A stretch of DNA of 64,000 nt. It comes from Campylobacterales bacterium. GTDB taxonomy: Bacteria; Campylobacterota; Campylobacteria; Campylobacterales; UBA6016. This document shows, one piece after another, positions 22,643 to 27,470 of the stretch. Where the stretch lies: NCBI GenBank assembly GCA_050252455.1, contig JBFWKW010000006.1, positions 926 through 64,925 of the forward strand, given 5' to 3'. Each line of letters starts with the position of its first letter. Positions within the stretch are counted from its first letter, which is position 1. A model generated the notes under the pieces. That model had not been told where the DNA came from and ran no database searches. It was given only the letters and a program-made list of their open reading frames with translations. Both the position numbers and the translations under genes were made by a program.

Positions 22643-22861
22643 AAGAGAATTCCTTGAAAATGAAGTTTCCTTCGAGACGCTATGGGTAAAACGGAGATTT
22701 TAGACGCATAGGTTACGAAGCTGTAGATATTCTATAATAATAAAAATAAAAACGAAGCTTAAATTTTAATCTTTTCTTCAAAAGATGTCACAATTCATTT
22801 ACAAAGACGGATAAAAGTCGTTTATGTATAATAAATACAGATAATTATAAAAAGGGTGGAA

Positions 22862-24421
22862 ATGAGTTATCTGTTGGCTATAGATGCAGGAACCGGGAGC
22901 GGGCGTGCGGTAATATTCGATGAGCTAGGCAATCAGCTAGGCGTAGGGCAAGAGGAGTGGAGCCATAGCGGCGAAGATGGTGTAGCGGGAGCTATGAATT
23001 TTGATACCGCAAACGGTTGGGCGCTCATATGTAGATGTATCAAAAAAGCGGTTAACGAAGCCAAAATAGATGTAAAAAATATAAAAGCCGTTACCGCAAC
23101 AAGCATGAGAGAGGGTATTGTCCTTTATGACAAAGGCGGCAAAGAGATATGGGCAGTTGCCAACGTAGACTCAAGAGCGGGCGCGGAAGTAGCCGCCATG
23201 AAAAGGGAGTTTGCTGGAGTCGAAGAGCAGTTTTATGCCAGAAGCGGACAGACATTTGCCCTTGGAGCGCTACCTAGATTGATGTGGCTTAAAAACAATA
23301 GGCCAAGCATTTATGAAAAAGTAACACATCTTACGATGATAGATACATGGGTGCTGCAAAAACTTAGCGGCGTGTTTGCCTGTGACCCTTCAAACGGCGG
23401 CACGACAGGGGTTTGGGAGCTATCACAAAGAGATTTTGCAAAAGATATGGCAAATAAGGTTGGACTTAACGGCGATATTTTCCCTCAGGTTTTTGAGCCG
23501 GGAACAATAATCGGCGAAGTAAGCGCAAAGGCGGCTAATGACAGTGGGCTGTCTGCCGGAACTCCAGTGGTAATGGGCGGCGGCGACGTACAGATGGGCT
23601 CTGCCTGGCTAGGGATAGTGCGCGAGGGCGAGTGCGCCGTGCTAGGCGGAACTTTTTGGCAGCAGGTCATCAATATCAAAGACGGCACGGTAGACCCAAA
23701 TATGAATCTTCGTATCAATCCGCATGTCATCAAGGGGCTTTCACAAGCGGAGGGGATTACTTTTTTTGCCGGAATGGTAATGAGATGGTTTAGAGACACG
23801 CTGGCAAATGCACAAAAAGAAGAAGCGGCAAGGCTCGGTATCGACGCCTATGCACATCTAGAGAAGCTAGCAACCGCCGTGCCCGTCGGAAGCTACGGCA
23901 TAATACCGATATTCTCCGATGCTATGAAATACGGCAAATGGATACATGCGGCACCATCGTTTCTCAATTTGCCGTTTGACTCCGAAAAAATGGGCGTAGC
24001 CGCACTCTTTAGAAGTTTGCAAGAAAATGCGGCGATAGTTAGCGCCGTCAACTTAGAAGCTGTAGCAAAATTTAGCGGCGCAAATCCAAAAGAGATAGTC
24101 TTTGCGGGCGGAGCGGCAAAAGGGTTTTTGTGGCCGCAAATACTAGCCGACGTGACGGGGCTGCCTGTCAAAACGCCGATAGTCAAAGAGGCAACGAGCC
24201 TTGGTGCGGCATTTGCGGCGGGAAGTGCCGTAGGGATATACAAAAATATCGAAGAAGCGGCAGGTTCACTTGTGAAATGGGACAAAGAGTTTACCCCTAA
24301 TCTTGAGAACAAAAAAGTTTATGACGAGGCGAAAGAGAAGTGGCAAAGAGCATACTCAAAAATGCTAGAACTACTGGATGATGGAACGACTACGCCGATG
24401 TGGAAAGCTCCGGGGTTATAA
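22862..24421 (+). CDS. lsrK: FGGY-family kinase, LsrK-like autoinducer-2 (DPD) kinase
   Basis: About 519 aa from the ATG at 22862 (AAGGG SD 5 nt upstream; the track start GTG at 22856 is less likely). Long collinear blocks match what I recall of enterobacterial LsrK: 'AIDAGTGSGRAVIFD', 'SMREGIVLYD', 'VLGGTFWQQV', 'NPHVI.G..QAE', 'MRWFRD', 'FAGGAAKG.LW.QILADV.GLPV', terminal 'WKAPGL'. Confidence 0.75.
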   Translation: MSYLLAIDAGTGSGRAVIFDELGNQLGVGQEEWSHSGEDGVAGAMNFDTANGWALICRCIKKAVNEAKIDVKNIKAVTATSMREGIVLYDKGGKEIWAVANVDSRAGAEVAAMKREFAGVEEQFYARSGQTFALGALPRLMWLKNNRPSIYEKVTHLTMIDTWVLQKLSGVFACDPSNGGTTGVWELSQRDFAKDMANKVGLNGDIFPQVFEPGTIIGEVSAKAANDSGLSAGTPVVMGGGDVQMGSAWLGIVREGECAVLGGTFWQQVINIKDGTVDPNMNLRINPHVIKGLSQAEGITFFAGMVMRWFRDTLANAQKEEAARLGIDAYAHLEKLATAVPVGSYGIIPIFSDAMKYGKWIHAAPSFLNLPFDSEKMGVAALFRSLQENAAIVSAVNLEAVAKFSGANPKEIVFAGGAAKGFLWPQILADVTGLPVKTPIVKEATSLGAAFAAGSAVGIYKNIEEAAGSLVKWDKEFTPNLENKKVYDEAKEKWQRAYSKMLELLDDGTTTPMWKAPGL

Positions 24422-24461
24422 AAAACAGAGTAAAATAACAAAAACAAAATTGGAAAATTAA

Positions 24462-24830
24462 ATGCTTTTGACAAACGAGAATGAACACGAATATAGATTT
24501 GGCGACCACGGTCCAAAATACCTAGCAAAGGGTCCAAATATCGACTTTGGCGTGGTGGTCATCACTCCCGGAGAAGAACACCCTTGTCACGCTCACGAGA
24601 GACAAGAGGAGTCGTTTTTTGCCCTTGAGGGCGAGTGCGAAGTGTGGGTAGACGGCAAGCTAATAGTGCTAAAAGCGGGTGATTACCTACAATGCGCCCC
24701 GGGCGAATCTCACTACTTTCGAAATGTAAGCGATAAAAACTTCAAATCCGTATTCGTAAAATCAATGCACACGCCGGATAAAGACAGCGTATACATCGAG
24801 TGGAAGCCGGGGCAAGAGTTTAAGAAGTAG
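24462..24830 (+). CDS. cupin-domain protein
   Basis: 122 aa. Cupin motif 1 'PGEEHPCHAHERQEE' and motif 2 'GDYLQCAPGESHYFRN'. Confidence 0.8.
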   Translation: MLLTNENEHEYRFGDHGPKYLAKGPNIDFGVVVITPGEEHPCHAHERQEESFFALEGECEVWVDGKLIVLKAGDYLQCAPGESHYFRNVSDKNFKSVFVKSMHTPDKDSVYIEWKPGQEFKK

Positions 24831-24841
24831 CCCTACTTCTT
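24822..24841. terminator. 9-bp inverted repeat spanning two convergent stop codons
   Basis: AAGAAGTAG-cc-CTACTTCTT. Both convergent genes end in Lys-Lys-stop with identical codons, which creates the palindrome. Terminator function is uncertain (tiny loop). Confidence 0.25.
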
Positions 24842-25957
24842 GAGCTTTGCCTGCTCCAGCTCCCAGTACTCTATCGCAAAAATATCTTTGAGACCGAGGC
24901 CCTGCCATCCGCCCAGAGCCTCGGCTCTTAGCATAGCGTCTACGGTGTGAGATATGATGTCTTTTAGCGCCTTCGCCTCTTTGTCGTCTTTTGCAGCGAC
25001 GAATACACCTTTGTCCTTGACAACACCCCATCTTGGAGCCTTGTCTAGTATGATTTTTGTGCCGTCGTTATGAGCCTCAAAGTATGAGGTGTACCAATCG
25101 GCGTAAGCTTTTACGCTATTTGCTTCCTCGCCCTCCTCTACTATCACCGCCCTAGGCTTCGTGCGGATGACATGCTCCGGCGTTAGCGGTCCACCGCATA
25201 TTATCTCTTCCAGATTTGCAAGGGAAGCTAGCGTTTTTGCCGATACCGTATCGACCGTGCATATATCTACTTCACAACCTCTAATCGCAGAAATCTCATC
25301 TTTTAGCGGAGCTTTTTTTACTTCGCTTGCCAAAAAAGAGTTCTCTATCTGCGCTTTTTGCTCCAAATAATCGGAGGCTTTTTTGACTAACTCTATCATC
25401 TTTTTGTAGCTCACGTCGCCGTCGTCGTCAAAGCTGAATATCCCATGGTTAAGAAGTACGATACCTTCTATATCGCTCCACTCTCGCCCTTTGACCGCCT
25501 CCGCTATCGCTTTGGAGAGGATGAAGCCCGGCATCACATAGTCTACGACCACTACCTTGTTGCCGTAAATCTGTTTGATTAGCTCTTTGCCTTTCGGGGT
25601 ATTAGAGACCGTCACTACGGCGTCGGCGTGCGTATGGTCTACAAATTTGTACGGGATGATGGCGTGCACCACGGCCTCGATGGACGGAGCGGGGGCATTT
25701 TTGTCGGTCATCCCCTCTTTTTGCAGCCTCACTAGCTCGCTATCACTTATGGAGTCCATCTTTGAAATATCCAGCAAGGCCTCCATCTGCACAGGGGCAA
25801 ATCCGGCTTCTTCTATCGTGCCGAGGTCCCAGCCGCTACCCTTGACCCAAAGCACTCCGTCTATCTTGACCGATGTATTGCCACCGCCGTGCAGCACTAG
25901 ATTTTCATCAACCCCCAAAAGTCTTGAGGTCTCTACCCTTTTTTTCAAAGCCTCCAT
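24833..25957 (-). CDS. class II aldolase/adducin-like domain protein (N-terminal half of 'bifunctional aldolase/short-chain dehydrogenase' type, no SDR half)
   Basis: 374 aa. 'LVLHGGGNTSVK' and 'VDHTHADAV' blocks are typical of that family. Confidence 0.7.
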   Translation of the reverse strand: MEALKKRVETSRLLGVDENLVLHGGGNTSVKIDGVLWVKGSGWDLGTIEEAGFAPVQMEALLDISKMDSISDSELVRLQKEGMTDKNAPAPSIEAVVHAIIPYKFVDHTHADAVVTVSNTPKGKELIKQIYGNKVVVVDYVMPGFILSKAIAEAVKGREWSDIEGIVLLNHGIFSFDDDGDVSYKKMIELVKKASDYLEQKAQIENSFLASEVKKAPLKDEISAIRGCEVDICTVDTVSAKTLASLANLEEIICGGPLTPEHVIRTKPRAVIVEEGEEANSVKAYADWYTSYFEAHNDGTKIILDKAPRWGVVKDKGVFVAAKDDKEAKALKDIISHTVDAMLRAEALGGWQGLGLKDIFAIEYWELEQAKLKK

Positions 25958-26018
25958 TGCCGCCCTCTCTTTTATTTTTTTGCGTTAGTATAACCGAAAA
26001 CTTTTTGTAAGAGACATA

Positions 26019-27470
26019 GTGAAAAACATCGTTCTTGCCACCATAAACGCCAGATACACCCACGCCTCGCTGGCGCTTAGATACCTGCATGCAAATCTAG
26101 GGGGGCTTCGAGATGAAGCCGTCATAGAAGAGTTTGTCATAAACGAAGATATGCAACGGGTCGCCGAGAGTATACTAGCTCACGCCCCTCGTATAGTAGG
26201 CATAGGGGTGTATATTTGGAACGCCGAAGATGCCAAAGAACTAATAGAGACGATAAAAAAGGTCTCGCCGGGCACGACGGTGGTCATAGGTGGGCCCGAA
26301 GCGTCGTATCTACCTCATCGTGTAGACTTCTCAGCAGCAGACTTCGTCATATCGGGCGAGGGAGAGGAGGCTTTTGCCGCCCTTTGTCGAATGGTTTTGG
26401 CGGGAGATGCCCCAAAAGAGAGGTTTATCAAGGCTGCCCCCGTCAACCTAAAAAATATCGCCCTCCCTTACAAATACTACAGCGACGAGGATTTAGCACA
26501 TCGGTATTTGTATGTTGAAGCCTCTCGCGGTTGTCCGTTTGAGTGCGAGTTTTGCCTATCCTCTATCGACGAAAAAGTACGCTACTTCGACGCCGACGCC
26601 TTGATGGACGAGATAAATGCGATATGGGAAAGGGGCGGTAGACGGTTTAAGTTTGTCGATAGGACTTTCAATCTGAACATCACGCTCGCCACCAAGCTTC
26701 TTGATTTTTTCCTAGCCAAAGAGCTGCCTTACAAAGTCCACTTCGAGGTCATCCCCGAGGCTTTTCCATCAGCGCTAAAAGAGAAGCTGGCGTTGTTTGC
26801 GCCCGATACCTTGCAGCTAGAGGTGGGGATACAGACGCTAAATCCGCAGATTGCACAAAACATCAACCGCAAGATGGACTTTGAAAAAATCAAAGAAAAT
26901 ATCGCATTTTTAGAGCAACACACAAACGCACATCTACATGTGGACCTCATCGTGGGGCTACCGGGCGAAGACCTGACGAGCTTCGGCCAAGGACTAAATA
27001 CCCTCGCCGCCCTCACAAAAAGCGAAATCCAAATAGGCATCCTCAAAAAACTATCCGGCACGACGATGAGCAGGCACGACGAGAAATACGGGATGATATA
27101 CTCGGACAAACCGCCTTACGACATACTCCAAAGCGGCTCCGTTTCGTTCGTTGACATTCAGAGGATGAAACGGTTTGCTAGGTTTTGGGATATTACCTAC
27201 AACAGCGAAAAGTTCGTCAAAACGCTTGAGCTGATGTGGGGCGACGATGTGTTCGGCGGGTTTTTGGCATTTTCGGATTGGGTGTATAGCACGGCGCAGA
27301 TGACGCACCAGATATCATTCAAACGGATGTGTGAGCTTATTTTTGTCTATTTGACAACCGTTTTGGGACATGACGAACTAGAGAGCGCAAAGATAATAGC
27401 GGAAGATACAAAAAGCTATATGGGCAACGGGCTGCCGACAATAATAGCGGATAAACTCAAAACAAAATAA
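26019..27470 (+). CDS. B12-binding-domain radical SAM protein (DUF4080 type)
   Basis: 483 aa with a GTG start. N-terminal Rossmann-like B12-binding region, 'EASRGCPFECEFC' CxxxCxxC motif, and a C-terminal extension. Confidence 0.8.
   Translation: MKNIVLATINARYTHASLALRYLHANLGGLRDEAVIEEFVINEDMQRVAESILAHAPRIVGIGVYIWNAEDAKELIETIKKVSPGTTVVIGGPEASYLPHRVDFSAADFVISGEGEEAFAALCRMVLAGDAPKERFIKAAPVNLKNIALPYKYYSDEDLAHRYLYVEASRGCPFECEFCLSSIDEKVRYFDADALMDEINAIWERGGRRFKFVDRTFNLNITLATKLLDFFLAKELPYKVHFEVIPEAFPSALKEKLALFAPDTLQLEVGIQTLNPQIAQNINRKMDFEKIKENIAFLEQHTNAHLHVDLIVGLPGEDLTSFGQGLNTLAALTKSEIQIGILKKLSGTTMSRHDEKYGMIYSDKPPYDILQSGSVSFVDIQRMKRFARFWDITYNSEKFVKTLELMWGDDVFGGFLAFSDWVYSTAQMTHQISFKRMCELIFVYLTTVLGHDELESAKIIAEDTKSYMGNGLPTIIADKLKTK

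Follow-up and report, generated by a model that had tools for sequence, protein, structure and literature searches.

A cupin and a stand-alone class II aldolase-like protein encoded beside LsrK in a Campylobacterales bacterium: a probable minimal, importer-free route for DPD removal

The canonical Lsr system of Escherichia coli and Salmonella is encoded by lsrRK and lsrACDBFG (PMC8016206, PMC3386761) and includes the importer LsrACDB, the repressor LsrR, LsrG and the thiolase LsrF, which has a class I fold and depends on CoA; its chemistry is summarised in PMC8016206. In E. coli, entry of autoinducer-2 (AI-2) is also possible without LsrACDB, along a PTS-dependent path, and whether LuxS and AI-2 serve as a signal or represent a metabolic by-product in organisms without known receptors has been debated for about twenty years (PMC3386761). 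A 'mannose-6-phosphate isomerase' gene that consistently adjoins lsrK, and that belongs to the LsrR regulon in Salmonella, was described in 2012 (PMC3420918).

In the L-fucose and L-rhamnose pathways (FucI-FucK-FucA and RhaA-RhaB-RhaD), an FGGY kinase is paired with a class II aldolase whose product is dihydroxyacetone phosphate (DHAP), which is the same pairing as in the locus described here. The DHAP shunt, which we take to consist of DrdK-DrdI-DrdA in Bacillus thuringiensis and of MtnK/MtnP-MtnA-Ald2 and to act on 5-deoxyribose and methylthioribose, converts a SAM-derived C5 by-product into DHAP by means of a kinase, an isomerase and a class II aldolase, as the present locus would likewise do. 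A further group of relatives is formed by the bifunctional aldolase/short-chain dehydrogenase (SDR) proteins, which are covered by PRK08324 models and by TIGR02632, 'bifunctional rhamnulose-1-phosphate aldolase/short-chain dehydrogenase'.

The window, which is the whole stretch of 64,000 nucleotides analysed here, comes from the 2.13 Mb genome (99.98% complete) of a free-living Campylobacterota bacterium. Its lsrK gene (22856..24421, plus strand) encodes an autoinducer-2 (DPD) kinase of the FGGY family with 521 aa, in which both the FGGY_N and the FGGY_C domains are found and which ends in WKAPGL. The kinase matches the NCBIfam equivalog NF008187, 'autoinducer-2 kinase', with 820.8 bits (cut-off 528), and the runner-up family in this profile search is XylB with 172.5 bits; the FucK and RhaB models reach 125 and 57 bits, against 821 bits for LsrK. 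It is 53% identical to E. coli K-12 LsrK over the full length and 21-27% identical to GlpK, XylB, FucK and RhaB. In the phylogenetic tree, the kinase lies within the LsrK clade (support 98/92), apart from GlpK, XylB, AraB, RhaB and FucK, with the characterised K-12 enzyme branching among those of the Campylobacterota. On this sequence evidence, the window kinase, whose gene is single-copy in the genome, is a true LsrK orthologue, which agrees with the preliminary description of the locus, where an LsrK-like kinase had been recognised partly by the same C-terminal residues and placement in the LsrK clade had been named as the check.

The ATG at 22862 is probably the start of lsrK rather than the GTG at 22856, because it is preceded by AAAGGG and because the resulting 519 aa match the same-genus relatives. 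A putative -10 box, TATAAT (22827-22832), and the AAAGGG ribosome-binding site (22851-22856), both read directly from the plus strand (22827..22856), are the probable promoter and ribosome-binding site of the gene; a consensus promoter scan does not call this box. Upstream, the neighbour of lsrK is a gene for an RRM RNA-binding protein. Downstream, after an A-rich gap of 40 nt that lacks a terminator, lies the gene of an LsrK-associated monocupin of 122 aa (24462..24830, plus strand), which is probably co-transcribed with lsrK. The third gene, which encodes a stand-alone class II (zinc) aldolase-like protein of 374 aa (24833..25957, minus strand), converges on the cupin gene, with the two stop codons 2 nt apart. 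This arrangement corresponds in its coordinates to that given in the preliminary description.

The same description had remarked that lsrACDB, lsrR, lsrF and lsrG are not adjacent to the kinase gene, and they are in fact absent from the genome, with no lsr operon elsewhere. Neither of the two results that it named as refuting its reading, a kinase outside the LsrK clade or a complete lsr operon at another site, is thus obtained. Searches of the whole genome by tblastn with E. coli LsrB, LsrC, LsrD, LsrR, LsrF and LsrG give no match at E<=1e-3, and LsrA finds generic ABC ATPases only. No ABM-domain protein (PF03992, the LsrG fold) is detected at E<=0.01 in the 99.98%-complete genome, and an MtnA-family (IF-2B, PF01008) isomerase is not found in it either. 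LuxS is encoded on a different contig, and the genome also has one Pfs-like nucleosidase.

The cupin matches Cupin_2 with an E-value of 2.3e-19 and has an intact metal site. In the alignment, His43, His45, Glu50 and His84, together with an N-terminal HEYRFG..GPKYL motif, are invariant, also in the E. coli homologue, which follows lsrK in strain DA33133 and to which the window cupin is 45.7% identical. The AF2 model (pLDDT 93) is closest in fold to KdgF and to sugar-phosphate isomerases of the cupin type. In metagenome data, LsrK is encoded in 25 of the 32 best cupin loci, mostly directly upstream of the cupin. The adjacency of lsrK and this gene is already known from the literature (PMC3420918), if the 'mannose-6-phosphate isomerase' gene of that paper is, as we read it, the LsrK-adjacent cupin. 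The cupin is shared by the window and by Salmonella-type and island-type lsr operons and comes after lsrK in many operons of canonical type, so that of the two neighbours called non-canonical in the preliminary description this one does not deserve the term.

No LsrG-fold protein occurs in this genome, which leaves the cupin as its sole dedicated candidate for the isomerisation of phosphorylated DPD. In E. coli and several Campylobacterota, the cupin coexists with LsrG or an ABM gene, so it may perform a reaction other than that of LsrG. There are also operons of canonical type with lsrK-cupin-lsrF, in which lsrG is undetectable at E<=10 in the stretch examined. A mutual exclusivity of cupin and ABM genes, first read from 7 versus 16 genomes of the order sample described below, is rejected in its strict form, as L129, L137 and L138 contain both genes, and so do 4 of 20 high-quality genomes.

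The aldolase-like protein matches PF00596 (Aldolase_II) with an E-value of 1.2e-20 and 74.6 bits, and it is the only protein of the genome to do so. It consists of an aldolase domain (residues 1-200) and a C-terminal domain of 170 aa. Its full 374 aa align with the aldolase domain and the middle domain of the bifunctional aldolase/SDR proteins, whose dehydrogenase half it lacks; in the NCBIfam model of these proteins, NF006196 ('bifunctional aldolase/short-chain dehydrogenase'), positions 16-400 of 657 are matched, with 403.9 bits, below the cut-off of 831. The zinc ligands His108, His110 and His171, the catalytic Glu94 and the phosphate-site Asn27 align with those of E. coli FucA and RhaD, although the identity to these two enzymes is only 23%. 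The AF2 model has a pLDDT of 93.5, with an N-terminal domain that has the fold of FucA and DrdA (6btg/6btd). The nearest solved structure is 3m4r (sequence E-value 8e-43; 40% identity and an rmsd of 1.9 Å in the fold comparison), which we take to be a structural-genomics entry for the class II aldolase domain at the N-terminus of a conserved protein from Thermoplasma acidophilum; this protein is uncharacterised and gives no clue to the substrate. For the C-terminal domain (residues 205-374) there is no PDB match, as the best 50 matches listed span only about 210 columns of the N-terminal domain.

A starred branch of the aldolase tree sets the stand-alone Campylobacterota proteins apart from the clade of fused ones, and certain LsrK-positive relatives have the fused aldolase/dehydrogenase in place of the stand-alone form. 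The fused relatives are 43-50% identical to the window aldolase, and 24 of 25 sampled genomes from other phyla that have them lack both LsrK and LuxS, for which reason a link of the whole aldolase family to DPD is rejected and the family is not DPD-specific. Part of the fused relatives also adjoin an MtnA-like gene, and the ancestral substrate of the family was therefore probably a 5-substituted pentulose 1-phosphate rather than P-HPD.

The distribution of these genes was followed in a phylum sample of 251 good Campylobacterota genomes and in an order sample of 61 genomes. LsrK and the aldolase occur in the same 21 genomes of the phylum sample, and neither occurs in the other 230. In the order sample, both are present in 23 genomes and both absent from 35; the remaining 3, which show a mismatch, are only 83-90% complete. 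The enzyme set is present in 25 of the 61 order genomes (about 40%) but in no more than 21 of the 251 phylum genomes, and the two largest families of the phylum sample (f26 and f11, 187 genomes) lack it throughout. Within genera g6, g12 and g17, gain or loss of LsrK goes together with that of the aldolase and the ABM gene. LsrK and the aldolase are found together in 40 distinct genomes, each of which also has the cupin or an LsrG-like ABM gene, if not both. This ABM protein, whose sole NCBIfam match is LsrG, is common in the relatives and, as a further likeness to the canonical system, its gene adjoins the aldolase gene in most of them.

The genes are clustered in many gene orders and in at least 12 genera, including ABM-aldolase-lsrK, ABM-aldolase-lsrK-cupin and a tight operon on one strand, aldolase-lsrK-cupin-luxS. 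The conservation of the neighbourhood that the preliminary description proposed to check is thus borne out. This clustering, the perfect phylogenetic profile and the intact active-site residues of all three proteins contradict the idea that LsrK is the remnant of a lost lsr operon, next to a cupin and an aldolase with unrelated jobs. Such a chance neighbourhood is very improbable, even though the aldolase gene of the window is on the opposite strand, the window contains no transporter or regulator gene, and the promoter and terminator scan, which returns fewer promoter matches than shuffled sequence does and finds no intergenic terminator, carries no information.

In a metagenome contig (L150), lsrA-C-D-B-aldolase is opposite to lsrR-lsrK-cupin, so that the aldolase gene occupies the usual place of lsrF beside a true LsrB (615.7 bits, cut-off 384). 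We propose the aldolase as a replacement of LsrF in the window genome as well, judging from its sequence and gene context. The hybrid operon indicates that the same enzymes can function behind an importer, and they might consume the external AI-2 of neighbouring cells by scavenging or quorum quenching, via a putative transporter and with something other than endogenous DPD as the main substrate. PTS-dependent entry, as known in E. coli, and the two AI-2E-family membrane proteins of the genome would suit this alternative, which we judge quite unlikely, since neither an LsrB- or RbsB-like binding protein nor an Lsr permease is detectable in the genome and none of the loci of 20 relatives has a conserved adjoining transporter. 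An internal source is indicated by luxS, which is part of the operon or adjoins it at four loci (L020, L038, L040 and L077), and by LuxS itself, which 59 of the 61 genomes of the order sample encode. As compared with the canonical system, the substrate of the three enzymes would therefore probably be made by LuxS within the cell.

The likeness to sugar pathways offers another explanation, in which a deoxy-sugar route of the fucose or rhamnose style handles the 5-deoxyribose or methylthioribose released by Pfs. In such a route the cupin would act as the aldose-ketose isomerase, phosphorylation at C1 would fall to the kinase, and the products of the aldolase would be DHAP and acetaldehyde or (methylthio)acetaldehyde. 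The layout of the trio resembles fucI-fucK-fucA and rhaA-rhaB-rhaD, the aldolase shares its fold with DrdA, which acts in 5-deoxyribose salvage, and MtnA-like isomerase genes adjoin fused relatives in LuxS-less genomes, as in the DHAP shunt. The genome itself has Pfs and lacks MtnA, which leaves it with no known handling of these by-products, and in several relatives an MqnC-like radical SAM gene lies directly 3' of lsrK. However, the kinase is orthologous to LsrK, has the E. coli enzyme inside its clade and is not FucK, RhaB or a kinase of the MtnK/DrdK type, and no FucI- or RhaA-type sugar isomerase is present. The recurring neighbour is luxS and not pfs or mtn genes, the ABM partner matches LsrG alone in NCBIfam, and in L150 the aldolase and cupin genes share an operon with true lsrB, with lsrACD and with an LsrR-like repressor gene. 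Among the sampled genomes outside Campylobacterota, the single carrier of LsrK is also the single carrier of LuxS. With these observations on both sides, a deoxy-sugar route is unlikely.

The preferred reading, to which we give a probability of roughly 0.68, is that lsrK, the cupin and the aldolase form a minimal Lsr-type pathway that removes DPD and has neither importer nor repressor. The trio is probably a short, undescribed route that returns DPD to central metabolism, and we infer for it the following reactions, with their substrates, sequence and products. DPD, which is the LuxS product and the AI-2 precursor, would be released in the cytoplasm by Pfs and LuxS, and uptake might add more. 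LsrK would phosphorylate it at C5. The resulting P-DPD would be converted by isomerisation into the 2,4-dione, present as P-HPD or as the hydrate P-TPO, with the cupin as the candidate enzyme in this genome. The aldolase-like enzyme, in the role of LsrF, would then stabilise the DHAP enediolate on zinc and split the bond between C3 and C4 to give a C2 unit and DHAP, an end product probably shared with the canonical system. Cleavage of the hydrated ketone would make this C2 unit acetate, and acetaldehyde would arise in those relatives whose fused dehydrogenase reduces C4 beforehand. To our knowledge, a beta-diketone is not directly cleavable by a retro-aldol enzyme, so the proposal requires one of these two solutions, the cleavage of the hydrated ketone or an earlier reduction. 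As a net effect, the ribose carbon of S-adenosylhomocysteine would be recycled and a reactive dicarbonyl detoxified, and the release of AI-2 would be only small or transient.

The suggestion of the preliminary description that the trio is a non-orthologous route for P-DPD thus holds as far as the functional link is concerned, with its identical profile, clustering and hybrid operon. A simple replacement of LsrG by the cupin does not hold, as the relatives usually have the ABM gene, and the biochemistry outlined above is what we infer from homology and context. Some observations run counter to the pathway: the aldolase gene of the window is convergent with lsrK-cupin and not part of the same operon, and the best homologue of the fused SDR half in the genome is only 29% identical. 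Among separate dehydrogenases that could match this half, the genome has generic SDRs only, with 24-29% identity.

A strictly co-inherited enzyme set of this kind would permit the disposal of DPD without receptor, importer or repressor, which bears on the long debate about LuxS. A more far-reaching version, which is tentative and on balance doubtful, is that free-living Campylobacterota destroy DPD inside the producing cell, with luxS as a purely metabolic gene and AI-2 release as a regulated overflow instead of a signal; the stand-alone class II aldolase fold would be a zinc-dependent, CoA-independent phospho-diketopentane cleaver, and the cupin a second, non-homologous P-DPD isomerase. If true, the class II aldolase fold would gain a type of reaction new to it, the zinc-dependent cleavage of a phospho-diketopentane. 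Searches of the literature on LsrK together with cupins, class II aldolases, Epsilonproteobacteria or Campylobacterota genera turn up no description of the module, apart from the isomerase remark in PMC3420918. Two large groups without annotation, the stand-alone aldolase branch and the cupin beside lsrK, which Salmonella-type lsr operons also contain, would receive from the proposal a first hypothesis on their function.

The kinase gene (lsrK), an open reading frame of the FGGY family, lies at 22856-24421 on the forward strand and encodes 521 amino acids. Translation probably begins at the ATG at 22862, which lies 3' of a probable TATAAT -10 box and of an AAAGGG ribosome-binding site and gives 519 residues, the length found in same-genus relatives. 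The cupin gene (24462-24830, forward strand, 122 amino acids), which has Cupin_2 as its family match, starts 40 nt 3' of the kinase gene, and no terminator was found in this 40-nt spacer. The class II aldolase-like protein (24833-25957, reverse strand, 374 amino acids) is convergent with the cupin gene, the two stop codons being 2 nt apart; it matches PF00596 and, at their first 400 positions only, "bifunctional aldolase/short-chain dehydrogenase" models. A DUF4080 B12-binding radical SAM gene (26019-27470), the head of an rSAM/DUF4130 cassette, is divergent from the aldolase gene across a gap of 61 nt (25958-26018), and this adjacency is kept within the genus (loci L024 and L026), not outside it.

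Against the NCBIfam equivalog for autoinducer-2 (AI-2) kinase, whose cut-off is 528 bits, the kinase scores 820.8 bits; no other FGGY model gives it more than 172.5 bits. A maximum-likelihood tree built from 44 FGGY kinases places all 39 LsrK-like sequences in a single clade (support 98/92), which is separate from E. coli GlpK, XylB, AraB, RhaB and FucK. The window kinase falls inside this clade, which contradicts a ribulo-/xylulokinase-type placement and confirms the LsrK identity proposed in the preliminary description. E. coli K-12 LsrK, which is biochemically characterised, is nested among the Campylobacterota sequences of the tree and shares 49-59% identity with Campylobacterota LsrKs, a range similar to that between the window kinase and the kinases of other Campylobacterota genera (53-63%). 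One relative, genome G030, has two LsrK copies, one of 855 bits and one of 756 bits, located on separate contigs (L021 and L031), with neither aldolase nor cupin nearby in the contig stretches examined.

Reference Lsr proteins from one annotated E. coli lsr locus were compared by tblastn with the whole host genome, whose assembly has 2.13 Mb and is 99.98% complete. LsrK matches over its full length with 52.7% identity and the E. coli cupin encoded after lsrK with 45.7%, while LsrB, LsrC, LsrD, LsrR, LsrF and LsrG have no match at E<=1e-3 and LsrA finds generic ABC ATPases only. The kinase, described before as an orphan without lsr partners, is thus an orphan genome-wide, with lsr genes other than lsrK absent at this threshold. 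The host genome encodes LuxS and one Pfs-like nucleosidase, has the window aldolase as its sole PF00596 gene, and contains no protein with an ABM domain (PF03992, the LsrG fold) at E<=0.01.

LsrK and the aldolase were profiled in two samples, in which related genomes are non-independent: among 251 high-quality Campylobacterota genomes both proteins are found in the identical 21 and neither in the other 230. The second sample, 61 genomes from the host's order, has 25 with LsrK and 24 with the aldolase; 23 of the 61 combine the two and 35 lack both. The three genomes of the order sample with just one of the pair are only 83-90% complete. The 21 carriers belong to 12 genera and 7 families (the window's own family counted), the two largest families of the phylum sample have none (0/81 and 0/106), and the carriers found among named MAGs are free-living Sulfurimonadaceae, Sulfurovaceae, Sulfurospirillaceae and Arcobacteraceae. 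The order sample includes three polymorphic genera (g6, g12 and g17), in each of which the gain or loss of LsrK goes together with that of the aldolase and of the ABM gene. Four gene orders are found: lsrK-cupin convergent with the aldolase, as in the window; aldolase-lsrK-cupin on the same strand; ABM-aldolase-lsrK; and ABM-aldolase-lsrK-cupin. In some genomes the LsrK and aldolase genes are hundreds of kilobases apart and are co-inherited all the same. The shared 21 genomes and the recurrence of the clusters in several orders support the functional link between kinase, cupin and aldolase that had been proposed from their adjacency.

Five observations point to DPD, the LuxS product and AI-2 precursor, as the probable substrate of the module, in preference to another sugar. 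luxS directly adjoins the cluster in four loci and in two arrangements, following aldolase-lsrK-cupin on one strand in L020 and being divergent from the aldolase in L038, L040 and L077. In L020 (1332-5644, genome G044) a 2OG-Fe(II) oxygenase gene stands before the aldolase on the same strand. Most relatives have a 95-aa ABM-domain gene 5' of the aldolase, and LsrG is the sole NCBIfam model that its product matches (E 4e-7, below the cut-off). The cupin, used as the query of a metagenome scan, lies 3' of lsrK in canonical lsr operons and in orphan modules alike; locus L147 has lsrBDCA opposite lsrR-lsrK-cupin-lsrF and L149 has lsrK-cupin-lsrF, and lsrG has no match at E<=10 in the contig stretches examined of these two. 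In L150 (1-8917, metagenome contig JAABUN010006328.1) lsrA-lsrC-lsrD-lsrB-class II aldolase is divergent from lsrR-lsrK-cupin, so the aldolase, directly after lsrA-C-D-B, occupies the usual place of lsrF; lsrF and lsrG are absent from this stretch. LsrB and LsrK of L150 score 615.7 bits (cut-off 384) and 818 bits, its LsrR-like repressor gene scores 319 bits, below the 486-bit cut-off, and its aldolase, partial at the end of the contig stretch, is 54% identical to the window aldolase over the N-terminal 175 aa compared. Of 25 genomes from other phyla that carry an aldolase homologue, LsrK occurs in one, a Shewanella with aldolase-lsrK-cupin, and LuxS occurs in this genome alone. We estimate a probability of roughly 0.7 that the trio is a DPD-breakdown module.

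The cupin was regarded as a non-canonical neighbour of the kinase, a view that does not hold, since it follows lsrK in canonical lsr operons too, both in the metagenome scan and in E. coli DA33133. In the locus of this strain (NZ_CP029574.1, L002:343-10241), lsrG is followed by an lsrE-like epimerase gene and lsrK by a gene for a 116-aa cupin, both of which E. coli K-12 (L116) lacks, and the LsrK of the strain is 88% identical to that of K-12; of 5426 complete E. coli genomes, 125 have this locus type as a blastn match to the window lsrK DNA. A "mannose-6-phosphate isomerase" gene, which belongs to the LsrR regulon, was reported by Quan and Bentley consistently beside lsrK in Salmonella, the B. 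cereus group and S. smaragdinae (PMC3420918), and if this gene is taken as the cupin, the lsrK-cupin association is already known. Among 40 distinct genomes with both LsrK and the aldolase, 14 have the cupin only (host's genus included), 20 the ABM gene only, six both and none neither, and the six with both reject the two genes as strict alternatives. LsrG and the cupin are also found together in E. coli island-type lsr operons. Since it coexists with LsrG or ABM, the cupin may be a second isomerase of phosphorylated DPD (P-DPD), or it may speed a kinase-side step such as ring opening or a change of hydration state. The host genome offers no dedicated candidate for this isomerisation other than the cupin. 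Its model (pLDDT 93) resembles KdgF and cupin-type phosphosugar isomerases, the His-x-His...Glu...His metal site is kept, and the N-terminal basic motif (R12, K19), which is invariant, would suit a phosphorylated ligand.

The AF2 model of the aldolase (pLDDT 93.5) has an N-domain with the FucA/DrdA/3m4r fold, while the C-terminal 170 residues have no PDB match among the best matches listed. In alignments with E. coli FucA and RhaD, H108, H110 and H171 fall on zinc-binding residues, E94 on the catalytic base and N27 on a phosphate-site residue, and 35 homologues show no variation at these five positions. As a family, these aldolases are not specific to DPD: there are more than 598 matches over many phyla at 43-50% identity, and those outside Campylobacterota are nearly always fused to a short-chain dehydrogenase in a protein of 655 aa. 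This form is widespread in Bacteroidota, Gamma- and Zetaproteobacteria, Omnitrophota, Planctomycetota, Gemmatimonadota and Chloroflexota (loci L042, L063, L073, L081, L094 and L115; also L052, L061, L062, L074, L079 and L104). In the aldolase tree, a starred branch (SH-aLRT 100) separates 59 fused sequences as one clade, of which 57 are without a nearby LsrK; Campylobacterota account for all the remaining 36 sequences, 30 of which share their locus with LsrK. Some LsrK-positive Campylobacterota, even in the host's genus, have the fused form instead. LsrK and LuxS are lacking in 24 of the 25 sampled fused-form genomes of other phyla and an MtnA-like (IF-2B) gene adjoins the fused aldolase in six loci, so the general role of the family is probably the cleavage of 5-substituted pentulose 1-phosphates. 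The fused-form neighbourhoods, which in Bacteroidota have a conserved set of four genes (abhydrolase, aldolase/dehydrogenase, PEP_hydrolase-like and UPF0261), may represent an undescribed DHAP-shunt-like pathway. The main rival reading, in which the trio salvages another by-product of SAM by a deoxy-pentose route, has this broader family on its side and against it the ties to luxS and lsr genes; we consider it unlikely. No MtnA-family isomerase was found in the host genome.

In the canonical route, LsrG makes P-TPO and LsrF moves the acetyl group to CoA, yielding DHAP (PMC8016206). Compared with this processing pathway, the trio is a stripped, partly non-orthologous variant. As a DPD-breakdown module, it would receive DPD from LuxS and convert it by LsrK to P-DPD, which would then be isomerised to P-HPD/P-TPO. 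The isomerase would be the cupin in the host and ABM, the cupin or both in relatives; the zinc aldolase-like enzyme would split the C3-C4 bond to give DHAP and a C2 unit. By chemical reasoning, a class II aldolase would stabilise the same DHAP enediolate leaving group as the LsrF route, cleavage of the hydrated C4 carbonyl would give acetate with no CoA, and the fused dehydrogenase of some relatives could reduce C4 first and give acetaldehyde. A source of DPD internal to the cell is favoured because an importer is not detectable and luxS is often within the cluster; DPD may also be taken up by a carrier of another kind than the Lsr importer. If DPD is internal, the module would recycle carbon and detoxify a dicarbonyl in chemolithotrophs with small genomes.

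In the literature, no paper was found that joins LsrK to a class II aldolase, nor any description of orphan LsrK modules in Campylobacterota. The present analysis contributes the exact phylogenetic profile of LsrK and aldolase, the distribution of the ABM and cupin genes, the occurrence of luxS beside the cluster, the hybrid operon of L150 with its LsrB and, as a control, a fused-aldolase clade that is independent of LsrK and LuxS. In Sulfurimonas-type loci (L016:4811-8867, also L066, L083, L087, L108 and L109), an MqnC/CofH-like radical SAM gene is found directly 3' of lsrK, a GT2 glycosyltransferase gene comes next in most of them, and L016 then has a PglB-type oligosaccharyltransferase gene.
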